Positions 941 to 59,700 of a stretch of 64,000 nucleotides of DNA are shown here, piece by piece. The position numbers were made by a program, and so were the translations under genes. Each line of letters begins with the position of its first letter. Position 1 is the first letter of the stretch. The stretch covers positions 39,742,001 to 39,806,000 of the forward strand of contig OZ024756.1 of NCBI GenBank assembly GCA_964016885.1, read 5' to 3'. Under the pieces are notes generated by a model that worked only from the letters and a program-made list of their open reading frames with translations, did no database searches and was not told the origin of the DNA. The DNA comes from Eledone cirrhosa. Taxonomy: Eukaryota.

Positions 941-1559
941 CCCTAGGTCAGGCTTCCCTTTTTTTTCAGTTTTTTAATATTTGTAGTTATTTGTCTATAT
1001 ATAAGTTTCTATTAACTATAACTATTCTCTCTTTTTCTTGTTTGAAGCTAAATAAATATTTTATAGAAATACTACTGACATTCCATTGAACAAATTCTTC
1101 TCTAGAACCCCGTTGAATATAGCATAGAATTTTTAGTTTAACACTTACCTTCTGATGCTTTAAAAGGAGTTTTCCCTGGCAGACATACAATTATTTAATC
1201 CGTAAGCATGTTGTAACTACTCCAAAGACTGAGTATTGAACTGAGTGCGGAGTTTGAGCCAGAGATCAGTGTTTATTGGCAAACGACTTCATTCTAATCA
1301 GTCAACTGGCATCCTTTGAATTTTGCCAATCTACTGTCTCGTTCAATGTATAATGAGGTTTTGATATTTGGTTCTCAGACAAATATTTATGCTGACAGTT
1401 TCAGTGGTATTTGGGGAATATTTTCCATCGCAATGCCGTTCTTAATGTACAAAAGTCCAGAATGTTTTATTGGAATAAATATAAAAAGATTCAATATAAT
1501 TTCTCTCCTTTTCAGATTAATTAATCAACTAATATTTTCTAGTTAGTCTTTCCAATACT

Positions 1560-3204: not shown

Positions 3205-3416
3205 GGAAAATGTTTAACCCCGACGGCAGAGCTCAAGCCGTTTCGACGGCTATTTCTGGAAATATGATTTGTAATGATTGTCCAGAAATAGCTGTCGAAA
3301 CGGCTTGAGCTCTGCCGTCGGGGTTAAACATTTTCCTATTACCCACTCTACTACCCCAAGTATTGAGTACTCTGGTGCGTTATGGTCCATCAGTTTCCTT
3401 ACCACACTTTCTTCGT
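3203..3416 (+). mobile_element. (TA)n-embedded foldback element, family A (hammerhead 3' half)
   Basis: 58-bp inverted arms 3203-3260/3281-3338, a 20-nt spacer and a 78-nt tail. Homologues at 6481-6533, 35820-35915 and 36989-37187. Confidence 0.8.
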
Positions 3417-3489
3417 TATATATATATATATATATATATAAAATAAAGTTAAATAAAAGTCAAATGATTAAAATTTAGCTTCGTTTATT

Positions 3490-3544
3490 ACTGCTATATA
3501 TATTTCAGTGACAGCCATCTTTGGCTGTGACCTCTTCAGGCAGT
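3490..3544 (-). ncRNA. Type I hammerhead ribozyme motif
   Basis: Minus strand reads ACTGC CTGAAGA GGT-C-ACAGCCA AAGA TGGCTGT-C-ACT GAAA TATATAT A GCAGT. Intact core, 5-bp stem I and palindromic stem III. Confidence 0.8.
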
Positions 3545-5084: not shown

Positions 5085-6610
<1,526 letters not shown>

Positions 6611-7572: not shown

Positions 7573-7712
7573 CGTGCGTGTGTGTGTGTGCGTGCGTGTG
7601 TGTGTGTGTGTGTGTGTGTGCGTGCGTGTGTGTGTGTGTGCGTGCGTGTGTGTGTGTGTGTGTGCGTGCGTGTGTGTGCGTGCGTGCGTGTGTGTGTGTG
7701 AGTGTGTGTGAG
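7500..7712. repeat. (TG)n/(TGCG)n microsatellite
   Basis: Direct observation. Confidence 0.97.
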
Positions 7713-7754
7713 TGAATATGTGAGTTTGTATACTATTAAGCACAAGGAAACTCA

Positions 7755-7876
7755 CATACTGGTACTTTATTTTATCGACCCCGTAAGGATGAAAGGCAAA
7801 GTTAACCTCGGAGGGATTTGAACTCAGAATGGCAAGGGCCGTAACTCTATGCGTCAAAGCATGGCGTCCGACCCTC
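7755..7876 (-). mobile_element. SINE family 1 fragment
   Basis: Reverse complement of the core and B-box. Confidence 0.8.
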
Positions 7877-21018: not shown

Positions 21019-21091
21019 TGCCGAAACCCAGGAATGAACCAGGGATCTTTAGATCTTCAGTGTAACGCTCTCCCAACTGAGCTATTTCGGC
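21019..21091 (-). tRNA. tRNA-Phe(GAA), probably degenerate or a pseudogene
   Basis: GCCGAAATAGCTCAGTTGGGAGAGCGTTACACTGAAGATCTAAAGATCCCTGGTTCATTCCTGGGTTTCGGCA. C.C mismatch in the anticodon stem and A58>T. T5 run 17 nt downstream. Confidence 0.9.
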
Positions 21092-35790: not shown

Positions 35791-36129
35791 ATGGATGGAT
35801 TATGTTTGAGACTGGTTAGACCATTACTCACCAGAGTACTCAATACTTGGGGTAATAGAGTATGGTTATATTACAGAGTCGGGACCCCGACGGCTGAGCT
35901 ATTGCCGTTTTAACAGTTCCATTATATATGTGTATGTATATATATATATATATATATAATTTAGTTACTTGCCTCAAGACTATCTCCACTGTAAGATGAC
36001 CCCCACTCCTCAGGTAAGCTACATGTAACGTGCCCTGTCTACACTATTCTCATCACTGCTTTCCTTGCCTAATTGAGGACATAACCAGTGTTGTTATGGG
36101 GTTGTGCAGGGGCTACAATGAAACACACC

Positions 36130-36993: not shown

Positions 36994-37181
36994 AAAGAGT
37001 CAGGACTCTGATGACTGAACTCCAGCCGTTTCGACAGCTAGATCTGAAGAGTTCGGATCTAGCTGTCGAAATGGCTGGAGCTCAGCTGTCGGGGTCCTGA
37101 CTCTTTTCCTATTACCCACTCTACTACCCTAAGTATTGAGTACTCTGGTGCGTTATGGTCCACCTGGTATCTTACCACACC

Positions 37182-38861: not shown

Positions 38862-39628
38862 ATCATCATCATCATTTTACGTCCGCTCTTCCCTGCTCGC
38901 AAGGGTGGGACGGGTCTTATTCAGCACAGCATCTCTCCACTCGTCACGGTCCTTCGTCATCTCCCGATCTGAGGTCTGTTCTCACCACCTCCGCCCATGT
39001 TTTTCGTGGTCTACCTCTACCACGTCTTCCTTCAACTGGCATTTCCTGGCACTTCTTCACCCATCAGTCATCGTCCATGCGCATCACATGTCCATACTAC
39101 CTCAGTCTCCTCTCCCGTACACTACATTCTATCCCTCTCAGACACAGTTTCTCTCTCAACACATTCATGCTGGGTCGTTCACGCACATTTACACTGCACA
39201 TCCAGCGGAGCATGCTTGCCTCATTTCTCTCCAGCCGTCGCATATCCTCTGCAGTTGCTGCCCATGTCTCACTACCATGCAGCATCGCGCTCCTCACACA
39301 GGCATCATACAACCGGCATTTCATACGCAGGGAGAAATCCTTCTTCGTCAGCAGAGGAAGCAGCTCCCTAAACTTCTTCCAACCCGTCCTTATTCTAGAT
39401 ACTATGGCCTCGGAACACCCTCCTCCCATACTAATCTGATCTCCTAGGTACCGGAAGCTATCCACCACTTCTATAGCACCCTCCTGCATTTGAAAAATGT
39501 GTCTATCAATGCGACTTCTACTGTCTAATTTCCCTGTACATCTACTGCATACATATTTCTCCCTACCTGTTAGTTTGCCTGCTATCCCGCTACATCTCTT
39601 GTGTACCCAGGATCTGCATTCTGTGCAT

Positions 39629-39630
<2 letters not shown>
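38862..39630 (-). mobile_element. RTE-clade LINE 3' fragment
   Basis: IEVVDSFRYLGD...LYDACVRSAMLHGSETW...RRLR*YGHVMRM...GRGRPRKTW, with a (TGA)n tail. Confidence 0.92.
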
Positions 39631-39661
<31 letters not shown>

Positions 39662-42722: not shown

Positions 42723-42789
42723 TTAACCTCATCCCACCCTTGCAAGCAGGGAAAAGTGGTCATAAAATGATGATGTTGATGATGATGAT

Positions 42790-43385
42790 ACAACCAAATA
42801 CCAATGACCTTGGAATCAATCCCTAAGACAGCTGTCATTACTCCATTTGGATTGAAAAATGCTGCTCTAGCTTTCCAAAGACCCATGGATAGTGTTCTTC
42901 ATGATATTCCTTTTACATTTGTGTATATTGCTGATGTTTTAGTCGTATCTCATTCCGGCAGTGAACAATTTTATCGTCTCAAAGAACTTTTCAGTCTTTT
43001 AACAACAAATGCTATGATAAACAACAAAAAGAAATGTGTTTTTGGAGTAAAACAGCTGGAATTCTTAGATGATCTCATCACAGATCAAAGCATTCAACCT
43101 CTTCCTTCAGGTATTACTTCGTTTCATGAATATCCCACACCAGATTCTCACACTGCTCTACAATGTTTCTCAGGAATGGTCAATTATTATCATAGATTTC
43201 TGCCTGGCATTGCAGAAATACTTCCTTCACTACACCAACAAGCTCATGGTAAAGGACAGGTCATCAGATTGTGAAAACCAGAACTATTAAGTGCCAATTG
43301 GTATGATGACCTACCCGTAATTCTGCCTGATCTTCGGTCATTCTGGAGATTTGGACATGATTGTTCCACAGCTGAACTCTCCAAG
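42790..43385 (+). pseudogene. Gypsy LTR retrotransposon pol remnant (RT fused to integrase tail)
   Basis: IPKTAVITPFGLKNAA..FQR.MD...VYIADVLV (YxDD lost)...KCVFG...GMVNYYHRFLP, then W.DDLPVIL..LR.....STAEL. Confidence 0.88.
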
Positions 43386-45213: not shown

Positions 45214-45557
45214 ATATAATATATATACATGTGTGTGTATATTTGTAGGTACACAGTTTCATATGTGTGTGTGTATGTATTGCTAGCTATACAGTTTTAT
45301 ATATATATATCATCATCACCGTGCTTTTTTTAAATGTGCTACCCACACGACCACTTTACAGTGTGGAGTGGGCGCTTTTTTGTTGTGACCCCTACACTAT
45401 ATATATATATATAATCAAATCTTAATATGGTTCATTGATTACTCAATGAATATAGTTTTACAATAGATTCAAAGCACTCAACAAAGAAGTTTTCTGGAGT
45501 TAGTAATATTATTCAAAATATTAATAAATGAAGACATTCACATAATCAAAATATATG

Positions 45558-45619
45558 TTTTATTATATATATTTCGGAGGTACTGTGCTGTTTTTTCAGT
45601 ACGTCCTCATCAGATAAAA
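45558..45619 (-). ncRNA. Type I hammerhead ribozyme motif (left arm of foldback element 45416-45810)
   Basis: Reverse complement of 45700-45761, with a CTGATGA core. Confidence 0.8.
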
Positions 45620-45699
45620 TACATGAATTGATGTATGACATACCTCAACTGTCTTGATGGTTTAATTTCAGTCTTGGCAGTCGTACATCAATTTATGTA

Positions 45700-45761
45700 T
45701 TTTATCTGACGAGGACGTACTGAAAAAACAGCACAGTACCTCCGAAATATATATAATAAAA
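45700..45761 (+). ncRNA. Type I hammerhead ribozyme motif
   Basis: TTTTAT CTGACGA GGA-C-GTACTG AAAAAACAGCA CAGTAC-C-TCC GAAA TATATAT A ATAAAA. Predicted cleavage after 45755. Confidence 0.82.
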
Positions 45762-45803
45762 CATATTTTGATTATGTGAACGTCTTCATTTATTAATATT
45801 TTG

Positions 45804-45887
<84 letters not shown>

Positions 45888-46181
45888 TCATCATTGTTTA
45901 ACGTGTCTTCCACACTAGCAGGAATTGTCCCATTTGAGGCAAGATTGGTAACTGTGTCTCGCTCGTATTGGACTATCTGGCAGGTTTTCTATGGCTGGAT
46001 GTCCTTCCTAACACCAACCACATTACAGTGTGGATATATATATAGTGTAGATATATATATACTGTAGATATAGATACTATGGAGATATAAAAGATACAGA
46101 AGCGAAAACCAATCCAAACCAGACAGTGAGTGTGTTTTATTATTATTTCTGGCAATATTATAACAATTTCATCCTCCCCAA

Positions 46182-46237
<56 letters not shown>

Positions 46238-46281
46238 CAATGATATTAAATAAAAGGAAACTATATTTATAAAACCATATT

Positions 46282-46344
46282 TATTTTATTATACATATTT
46301 CAAGGGTACCAAGACACTTTGGTACACTTTCTTCAGATAAAATA
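46282..46344 (-). ncRNA. Type I hammerhead ribozyme motif (left arm of 46236-46578)
   Basis: Minus strand reads TATTTTAT CTGAAGA AAG T GTACCAA...TTGGTAC C CTT GAAA TATGTAT A ATAAAATA. Confidence 0.72.
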
Positions 46345-46379
46345 CAAAGTTTGTTTCTCTATTTATAAAACAAACTTTG

Positions 46380-46442
46380 TATTTTATCTGATGAAAGCGT
46401 ACCAATGTGTCTTGGTACCCTTGAAATATATATAATAAAATA
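46380..46442 (+). ncRNA. Type I hammerhead ribozyme motif
   Basis: TATTTTAT CTGATGA AAG-C-GTACCAA TGTGTC TTGGTAC-C-CTT GAAA TATATAT A ATAAAATA. Confidence 0.78.
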
Positions 46443-46889
46443 AATATGGTTTTATAAATATAGTTTCCATTTATTTAATATCATTGAATATTTACTCCAA
46501 TTTCTGTTGAGTGCTATAAATCAGTTATAAACACTTATATTTGTCGGACTTCCAACAAATTAAATACCCCTTCTACTTATATATATATATATATATATAC
46601 ACAGACACACATATAAATATCCAACGATATAAATGTACAATAGAGCATATCAAACTTTAGCAAGAGACTGTATATAAGATCTCTATAGAATGTAAGAAGT
46701 TTGTTGAATTTCTTTTTAGTTTATTTTGGGAGACAAGACACATGTTTGAGATTATCTCAAACATGACATCTATAACTTTGACTGTTATATATATGATATT
46801 GTGTATATATATATACTATATACATCACATTCAAAGTTATAGATGTCATATATATATATGTGTGTATGTGTATTGTTAGCTATACAGTT

Positions 46890-46941
<52 letters not shown>

Positions 46942-47035
46942 GAGGTTATATTTAATTTAAAAAATTTTATAACTGATATAAAGCACTTAACAAATTAGTG
47001 GAGTAAATATACAATATATTATAAAACCATATTTA

Positions 47036-47097
47036 TTTTATTATACATATTTCAAGGGCAACCAAAGCAAATTATGGTGCGCTTTCATCAGATAAAA
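47036..47097 (-). ncRNA. Type I hammerhead ribozyme motif (left arm of 46939-47300)
   Basis: Reverse complement of 47195-47256. Confidence 0.72.
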
Positions 47098-47192
47098 AGA
47101 CAACCTTAACGGTTGGAACTTCCTGGAAGCTCCAACCGTTAAGGTTGTCTTTTTTTCCGGGTATGTCAATATTTATTTCTAAAACAAATCTG

Positions 47193-47258
47193 TATTTTAT
47201 CTGATGAAAGCGCACCATAATTTGCCTTGGTTGCCCTTGAAATATGTATAATAAAATA
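47193..47258 (+). ncRNA. Type I hammerhead ribozyme motif
   Basis: TATTTTAT CTGATGA AAG-C-GCACCA...TGGTTGC-C-CTT GAAA TATGTAT A ATAAAATA. Confidence 0.75.
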
Positions 47259-47414
47259 ATTATGGTTTTATAAATATAGTTTCCATTTATTAATATATTG
47301 TATATATATATATATGTATGTATATATATATATATGTATGTATATATATATATATGTATGTATATATATATATATGTATGTATATATATATATGTATATA
47401 TATATTTATATGTG

Positions 47415-47470
<56 letters not shown>

Positions 47471-57789: not shown

Positions 57790-59700
<1,911 letters not shown>

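Follow-up and report, generated by a model that had tools for sequence, protein, structure and literature searches.

Penelope-like elements (PLEs) of the Hydra clade have been described as having RWx and DKT motifs, a CxCx5C linker, a GIY-YIG endonuclease (EN) that sits at the C-terminus and lacks CCHH, a hammerhead in the pLTR, and (TA)n targeting (Craig et al. 2021, PMC8557442). The elements described here share these features with members such as Hydra-1_Obim and Penelope-13_HM, along with the inverted 5'-truncated copy and the tail at one end that the same description reports, but their copy number is far above the few copies noted for the clade, and their tails measure ~90-100 nt rather than 30-40 nt. 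They also reach an estimated ~3.5 kb (from leader, ORF and a 3' region of 1.0-1.4 kb, a length inflated by SINE-like inserts), whereas Hydra-clade elements are generally <3 kb. As reported by Cervera and De la Pena (2014, PMC4209133), PLE minimal hammerheads resemble those found here: helix II is long and has an unpaired 5' base, helix III is palindromic, and most occur as single truncated copies; up to ~9,000 motifs were reported, compared with ~27,000 exact ones here, and activity was low and dimer-dependent. In Schistosoma mansoni, dual hammerheads lie 100-700 bp apart on opposite strands, an arrangement whose origin that report leaves unexplained. For PAc, the Anolis carolinensis Poseidon element studied in vitro by Frangieh et al. 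(2024, PMC11167929), both strands are cut and extended, RT begins at two internal positions bordering the tail, and insertion is reported not to need the hammerhead. The two sites bounding the tail and the AT-rich target resemble what we find, but PAc has its two starts within a single AC-rich stem-loop of the ORF, whereas here the two ends lie ~95 nt apart in the 5' UTR, upstream of the ATG, each with its own predicted hairpin. Penelope of Adineta vaga (Arkhipova et al. 2013, PMC3846280) has in common with our elements a TATA box and an Inr-like TCACT in the pLTR, head-to-head pLTRs, a single tail, palindromic junctions and solo pLTRs; its inversions were put down to self-priming on an antisense template, and its solo pLTRs to recombination or deletion. 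For D. virilis Penelope, a TATA-less internal promoter has been reported (PMC2377424).

The family type, the ribozyme, the TA target, inverted pLTRs, the one-sided tail, opposite-strand hammerhead pairs and the TATA/Inr of the pLTR are therefore already published, and Craig et al. named the origin of PLE inverted repeats and one-sided tails an open task (PMC8557442). The main text of that description, which does not use the words 'hairpin' or 'stem-loop', makes no mention of twin hairpins, a long helix or short copies bounded by a start site. In the literature searched, we did not find twin hairpins, a mixed-end rule expressed as a count, or a start-site limit; subscription papers on PLE structure, Repbase and figures may hold some of these.

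We analyzed a window of 64,000 nucleotides from Eledone cirrhosa (contig OZ024756.1, positions 39,742,001 to 39,806,000, assembly GCA_964016885.1). Inspection of a 1.9-kb cluster in this window confirmed an initial sequence-only reading, which had noted three foldbacks bounded by (TA)n: the layout is that of three inverted elements with (TA)n on both sides of each (Table 1). Arm complementarity is 95-96% in elements 1 and 2, and the arms of element 3 share a 7-nt overlap at a short palindrome. We found that the cluster represents three independent insertions from three families (A, B and C). A tail motif common to the three longer arms, which that reading had also pointed out, is present in each and is, by sequence comparison, the hairpin motif R1 discussed below. 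The elements are new members of a known clade, and the striking look of the cluster is accounted for by ordinary Hydra-type PLE insertions. The inverted layout itself, which had been contrasted with a supposedly usual direct tandem arrangement of PLE hammerheads, is not unusual in PLEs according to published descriptions (PMC8557442, PMC3846280, PMC4209133).

Table 1. Features of the foldback cluster (positions within the window).
Feature	Position	Strand	Basis or remark
Remnant of the (TA)n target, left of element 1	45398..45413	.	sequence
Element 1 (family A) tailed arm, predicted +1 (exactly, 45681) to site 2	45414..45681	-	maps to natural full leader L268; offset 0 from +1
5' strand (B) of covarying long-range helix, element 1; partner beyond site 2, uncopied	45459..45469	-	leader alignment
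Hairpin motif R1, element 1, just 3' of site 1	45473..45500	-	motif scan
Minimal type I hammerhead, element 1, predicted cut 45564	45558..45619	-	descriptor scan
Tail-less arm of element 1, from leader +42 as far as site 1	45680..45809	+	leader mapping
Minimal type I hammerhead, element 1, predicted cut after 45755	45700..45761	+	descriptor scan
(TA)n, right of element 1	45810..45885	.	sequence
(TA)n, left of element 2	46186..46233	.	sequence
Tail-less arm of element 2 (family B), from leader +59 as far as site 1	46234..46356	-	maps to L242
Minimal type I hammerhead, element 2, predicted cut 46290	46282..46344	-	descriptor scan
Tailed arm of element 2, from leader +48 as far as site 2	46356..46578	+	leader mapping
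Minimal type I hammerhead, element 2, predicted cut after 46434	46380..46442	+	descriptor scan
Hairpin motif R1, element 2	46494..46515	+	motif scan
5' strand (B) of covarying long-range helix, element 2	46519..46529	+	leader alignment
(TA)n, right of element 2	46579..46599	.	sequence
(TA)n, left of element 3	46895..46938	.	sequence
Tailed arm of element 3 (family C), from leader +4 as far as site 2, without ~+38 to +76	46939..47127	-	maps to L280
Hairpin motif R1, element 3, one substitution in 3' strand	46982..47004	-	motif comparison
Minimal type I hammerhead, element 3, predicted cut 47042	47036..47097	-	descriptor scan
Tail-less arm of element 3, from leader +4 as far as site 1	47121..47301	+	leader mapping
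Minimal type I hammerhead, element 3, predicted cut after 47250	47193..47258	+	descriptor scan
(TA)n/(TATG)n, right of element 3	47302..47459	.	sequence

All six hammerheads that had been read on the two strands were recovered by a descriptor scan, and the cut predicted after 45755 is correctly placed by motif scan. Each motif combines a helix I of 6-8 bp with a CUGANGA core, GAAA and a UA cleavage site; helix II shows the customary unpaired base, and helix III is palindromic. None of 500 dinucleotide shuffles of the 1.9-kb region contained a hammerhead motif. Rfam at its gathering score gave no match in the cluster region, and the 150 of 308 Rfam matches listed in the window comprised just microsatellite or miRNA noise and one tRNA-like match. 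In copies picked by protein alone, core mismatches numbered 0/303, compared with 101/2883 elsewhere, and the helix II base varies in step across families. The core is thus conserved relative to its flanks, as the sequence-only reading had anticipated for a genuine ribozyme, and its invariance in protein-selected copies indicates that the source elements hold the ribozyme under selection. Since copies extend across the cleavage site, the template RNA was uncleaved, a feature shared with the Anolis element (PMC11167929). It had also been suggested that a transcript across a foldback could switch between cleavage and dsRNA. In predicted foldings of such through-transcripts, pairing between the arms amounts to -166 to -212 kcal/mol and helix I has a probability of 0.0 in all six; in every case transcription reaches the antisense arm first. 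No switch is thus indicated, and both ribozymes are predicted to be trapped in dsRNA.

The proposal that the cluster belongs to a non-coding, TA-targeted retroelement system related to PLEs holds for the relationship and the target, 54/63 site 1 or site 2 ends abutting a dinucleotide repeat, but not for the absence of coding capacity. A search for full-length RT/GIY-YIG elements with these arms, which had been suggested as a check, identified autonomous parents for all three families. Long family B arms run into a GIY-YIG frame, families A and C are joined to related ORFs, and full leaders lie upstream of the ATG for A, B and C; the window arms are 75-94% identical to these parental leaders, and a sense hammerhead lies 0.7-1.4 kb downstream of the GIY-YIG in 23/29 protein-selected loci. 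The parents have open frames of 636-699 aa, consisting of a single ORF with a TERT-like RT plus GIY-YIG at the C-terminus. Their motifs include YRDD, RLRWR, KSDKT (DKT in place of DKG) and the CxCx5C linker. CCHH is absent, the GIY-YIG lacking the internal cysteine pair, and CKLC..E and SCRH (CxxC and CxH beside conserved E and N) are found near the C-terminus. A model of the parent protein (pLDDT 88.8) has TERT 3du5 as its top fold match. The GIY-YIG match in Pfam is weak (E 0.004, falling short of the cut-off), the long ORF drew no match in Pfam or in PDB sequence searches, and homologues of the ORF are 30-49% identical and mostly unnamed.

Set against the published description, the RT, linker, GIY-YIG and hammerhead/(TA)n features place the elements in the Hydra clade. 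The Neptune clade (DKG, a CX2-5CxxC linker and CCHH in the EN) is ruled out by DKT, CxCx5C and the missing CCHH, and Naiad/Chlamys (N-terminal EN, no canonical hammerhead) by the C-terminal EN and the hammerheads. Asymmetric ends and variable centres exclude a MITE or foldback DNA transposon, which would have symmetric TIRs and a fixed interior. Non-LTR retrozymes share the type I hammerhead and a PLE origin with our elements, but they form direct tandem arrays and have no coding parent, whereas these elements are dispersed, head-to-head and products of coding parents. By these sequence criteria, the foldbacks are truncated insertion products of protein-coding Hydra-clade PLEs; the coding parents, together with central junctions specific to each copy, show that they do not form a non-coding system.

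In the assembly holding the window (3.0 Gb), exact matches to a 21-nt ribozyme pattern that covers helix I, the core and the beginning of helix II number 26,767, compared with 0 for a control pattern, and each of the three elements has many copies that are 86-99% identical (40 candidates scored per search). Six tight divergent pairs occur among the first 100 matches listed, which extrapolates roughly to ~1,600 tight foldbacks genome-wide, potential dsRNA sources if transcribed. Besides these pairs, 8 gaps <1.5 kb occur among 94 sites, compared with 0.54 expected, indicating that clusters of insertions are common; the likely cause is that every insertion leaves fresh (TA)n on both flanks. Outer ends are fixed while central junctions vary between copies, family A centres differing and measuring 70-95 nt in 28/30 loci. 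Therefore, each foldback arose at its own insertion, and the idea that it amplifies as a unit was rejected. The possibility that the inversions are assembly artefacts, raised earlier, is unlikely because the arms differ in sequence and raw reads carry both inverted joints and (TA)n ends. In three RAD-seq DNA runs, reads on the family C leader (88% likeness) include opposite-strand joints and loose ends that enter (TA)n near site 1, and depth falls more than tenfold past site 2; these reads, to which related families contribute, bear on inversions in general rather than on the exact cluster locus.

From 5' to 3', complete leaders comprise a TATA-like box, an Inr-like TCACT/CCACT, the hammerhead, site 1 followed by R1 and strand B, site 2 followed by R2 and strand B', and the ATG. 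In families A and D the TATA-like box lies ~31 nt ahead of TCACT, and families B and C have a weaker CATAA-type box ahead of CCACT. The hammerhead core lies 64-105 nt downstream of the Inr-like motif, and sites 1 and 2 are short alternating-AT runs. Since site 2 is ~55 nt 5' of the ATG, we rejected the idea that the tail is the ORF N-terminus. L268, L242 and L280 served as reference leaders for families A, B and C, respectively; a pattern for full family A leaders gave 6 matches, compared with 3 in the control, and one of them, L268, is a genuine leader. The foldbacks lack the TATA box, R2 and B'.

Where copies end was scored, irrespective of structure, in 60 regions around the earliest listed pattern matches, which yielded 71 arms. 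Their 3' ends fall at site 1 in 44 arms, at site 2 in 19 and elsewhere or unclearly in 8. An inverted partner without an intervening (TA)6 accompanies 41/71 arms (23 site 1/site 2, 9 site 2/site 1, 3 site 1/site 1, 0 site 2/site 2 and 6 unclassifiable), and the other 30 have no partner within the fetched DNA or are separated from one by a TA run. With five two-armed insertions counted once, 27/30 classifiable insertions have mixed ends, one arm tail-less and the other tailed; the remainder comprise 3 site 1/site 1 and no site 2/site 2 (p 4e-6 against 0.5). No reverse-strand match reached the tail among 40 scored family A loci or among 40 of a fourth family. Neither arm is always a subset of the other, in the unselected set as in element 3.

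The 5' ends point to a second limit. A usable reference was available for 50 of the 71 arms, with 21 lacking a good one. Six stop >45 nt inside the predicted +1 (5 of them artefacts), 8 run at least 40 nt upstream, and 34 of the remaining 36 stop at or inside 3 nt upstream of +1; 16 ends fall within 13 nt of it (p 3e-5). Family C lacks a good upstream reference, and its -53 values are artefacts outside the counted range. Among family B loci found with a query not covering the region, 22/26 stop by 1 nt upstream of +1, 4 run long and none falls between. Because the junction hot spot is where the +1 motif was initially noticed by eye, the test is partly circular, and it is in a supportive rather than blind sense that short arms appear to end at the predicted TATA/Inr start site. 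The expectation that tailed arms in ORF-bearing insertions also stop at +1 failed in 4/8, where the inverted tailed arms extend past it, so tandem read-through RNA is needed for these. We also show that both arms of one insertion come from the same source haplotype: in family A, arm pairs are discordant at 18/204 diagnostic sites (8.8%), compared with 45% in shuffled pairs, although this exceeds the 2.6% background. The corresponding counts are 5/52 in family C and 3/11 in family B, the latter uninformative.

Each of the two ends lies just 5' of a short RCYC...GRGY-RCT motif predicted to form an RNA hairpin. We found this motif in 39 complete leaders, at a chance occurrence of <=0.3% per 150 nt, and three distant families of the same genome also carry it. 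In an alignment of 33 hand-picked complete leaders, the putative helix B/B' is 93.6% paired, and 4/11 of its pairs carry changes on both sides. Placed on a tree built from the adjoining downstream coding DNA, three of the four changed once each on separate branches, one via G-U; compensatory events are few. An inner hairpin has two both-side changes and 79% pairing. The 4-5 bp stems of R1 and R2 are 91.5% and 97% paired without both-side change, and differ from each other by an A-U/G-C swap. Four leaders folded singly gave z of -2.9 to -5.0, with B/B' in 4/4 and both hairpins in 3/4. R2 is rarely copied into insertions: exact genome copies in families B and C number 14,713 for R1-B and 85 for R2-B'. 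A scan of the window found the motif at six places, two in the cluster, three in distant-family tails and one at 59065. The last belongs to a fourth, unrelated foldback (58898-59127) with a tail on just one of its two sides, and none of its 40 scored relatives is double-tailed. By eye, the hairpin is also recognizable in 4/6 published Hydra consensi (File S7, PMC8557442), from sea cucumber, coral and copepod, three other phyla. Two occurrences are visible in Hydra-1_Ajap and two in Hydra-1_Crog, of which one of the latter has a compensatory change and the other a mismatch, and the Hydra-2_Ajap and Hydra-2_Amil tails carry it as well; Hydra-1_Obim, from Octopus bimaculoides, has a single degenerate hairpin, and the Hydra-1_Amil consensus stops before the region. 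It is likely, judging from these predicted structures, that the hairpin pair beside the two copy ends tells the enzyme where copying starts.

The explanation we consider probable is that both nicked (TA)n strands prime RT on sense RNA, one per hairpin, and that the two cDNAs are joined head-to-head. A transcript would begin at the Inr, and the RT-endonuclease, probably as a dimer, would bind R1 and R2 and nick both strands of the palindromic (TA)n; the dimer idea rests on a published prediction for the Anolis element (PMC11167929). Each target 3' end could then base-pair with the brief alternating AU run lying on the 5' side of a hairpin, and the cDNAs would head for the RNA 5' end, spanning up to ~190 and ~280 nt on pLTR-initiated RNA. 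Host end-joining would fuse them via microhomology, with sequence lost from the centre, and longer arms and ORF-bearing copies would come from tandem read-through RNA. As part of the leader, the hammerhead would be carried as a passive passenger, any cleavage needing helix III dimerisation or protein help. In this model, the end rules found here connect with what has been published on in vitro activity, namely extension of both strands and two internal starts, and with a predicted dimer. A broader version, to which we give an even chance, is that Hydra-clade PLEs carry a clade-wide, previously undescribed twin RNA start signal, consisting of two hairpins behind AU runs that would pair with the nicked (TA)n, with a covarying helix between them, on which a dimeric telomerase-like RT-endonuclease would prime both target strands at once.

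Within this two-start model, the RNA might instead adopt crossed R1-3'/R2-3' pairing together with B/B', a pseudoknot topology, alone or in alternation with the local hairpins. RNAalifold favours this pairing, which is exclusive of the local hairpins, and 97% of cells are paired, with two pairs varying solely between Watson-Crick and G-U. Nevertheless, both-side change is absent, the pairing is impossible in Hydra-1_Ajap, in which both repeats end alike (PMC8557442), and linkers of 1-5 nt would probably make both helices together difficult. We retain it as an unlikely, though not negligible, variant of the two-start model rather than an exclusive alternative.

Among competing explanations, it is conceivable, if rather unlikely, that sites 1 and 2 mark where the endonuclease cuts a DNA intermediate, with R1 and R2 as DNA or ssDNA signals, AT-rich sites that mimic (TA)n, and a tail produced by resolving a longer cDNA. 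Both sites are indeed short alternating-AT runs, and the hairpin stems are almost invariant; moreover, Craig et al. ascribed the tail to EN-mediated resolution (PMC8557442), and recognition of plasmid DNA by the D. virilis EN depended on the tail (cited in PMC11167929). However, the long helix covaries and tolerates G-U, and so do the variable inner stems of the hairpins, a pattern that fits a folded single strand better than duplex DNA, and the RT starts of the Anolis element in vitro coincide with its tail ends (PMC11167929).

A single cDNA that folds back and self-primes, forming a palindrome that later loses its centre asymmetrically, would explain the common haplotype of the two arms and the short palindromes or templated snippets often found at junctions, as in element 3. 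Central deletion is a known fate of long palindromes. Against this idea, in the unselected set, counted by hand after 9 spurious flank matches were dropped, the tailed arm starts downstream of the ribozyme core and the tail-less arm reaches further 5' in 15 insertions, with the reverse in 3, and tail-less arms bearing the ORF pair with short tailed arms. In addition, the cliff of 5' ends at the sense TATA/Inr indicates a sense template. The end statistics thus favour two sense-strand primings over antisense self-priming, and we regard the latter as improbable. Finally, copying of the whole foldback as a non-autonomous retrozyme-like or MITE-like unit with a cleavage/dsRNA switch, as the sequence-only reading implied, is very improbable: many copies are alike end to end and retrozymes have been proposed to derive from PLE pLTRs (bioRxiv 10.64898/2026.07.22.740005), but the differing family A centres, the missing TATA box, R2 and B', the predicted lack of helix I in through-transcripts, the absence of tandem arrays and the asymmetric ends all argue against it.

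The value of these elements is mechanistic, since end statistics from thousands of copies, combined with a candidate RNA signal, make the mechanism directly testable. If the clade-wide twin signal is real, a single step would yield the one-sided tail, head-to-head inversions and tens of thousands of solo leaders bounded by a start site, and the tail would be a module that licenses the next round. These findings are relevant to how the sister group of telomerase selects its template start, and the start-signal reading would likely account for a long-unexplained feature of PLEs.

A fourth foldback in the window, from a family unrelated to the three Hydra-clade Penelope-like elements at 45416-47300, carries a minus-strand hammerhead in its tail-less arm, while its other arm holds a truncated hammerhead, the R1 hairpin (a predicted short RNA motif just 3' of the outer arm end called site 1; here at 59065) and the tail. 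This layout is common to all 40 of the relatives scored. Four other pieces of the window match a distant Hydra-type family in its leader, and R1 recurs in three of them.

Hammerhead and retroelement features in the window and at other loci (L) of the genome
Feature	Location	Strand	Remarks
Fourth foldback	window 58898-59127		(TA)n on both flanks
Minimal hammerhead, another family	window 3490-3544	-	Additional; ends at (TA)n run near 3420-3440
Distant Hydra-type family, leader-matching pieces	window 3217-3422, 35819-35861, 37060-37179, 6487-6525
Same family, full leader	L220 about 7675-7845		Matched by the window pieces
tRNA-like match	window 21019-21091	-	Above gathering score, with mismatches; among matches listed
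LINE (RTE-like) RT C-terminus-like fragment	window 39097-39660	-	By eye
LTR-type RT-like fragment	window 42789-43274	+	By eye
RT fragment, different PLE type (YVDD)	L217 5523-6263	-	By eye not Hydra-like

Upstream of the predicted start, families B and C share ATTTGCAT (L242 about 680-700; L280 about 1120-1130, minus strand), which we take to be an octamer-like motif; a clean TATA box is absent in both families. Within the ORF, asparagine-rich inserts of variable length occupy the thumb-to-linker region at four loci (L073, L226, L231 and L377), and similar inserts are described for Adineta Penelope elements (PMC3846280).

Younger insertions lie at or near site 2, the outer end of the tailed arm and a proposed RT start site, or within the ORFs of older copies (L234 about 948-1010, L020, L237, L244 and L248). 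Given where these new insertions land, the AT-rich start sites of older copies may also be cut as targets.
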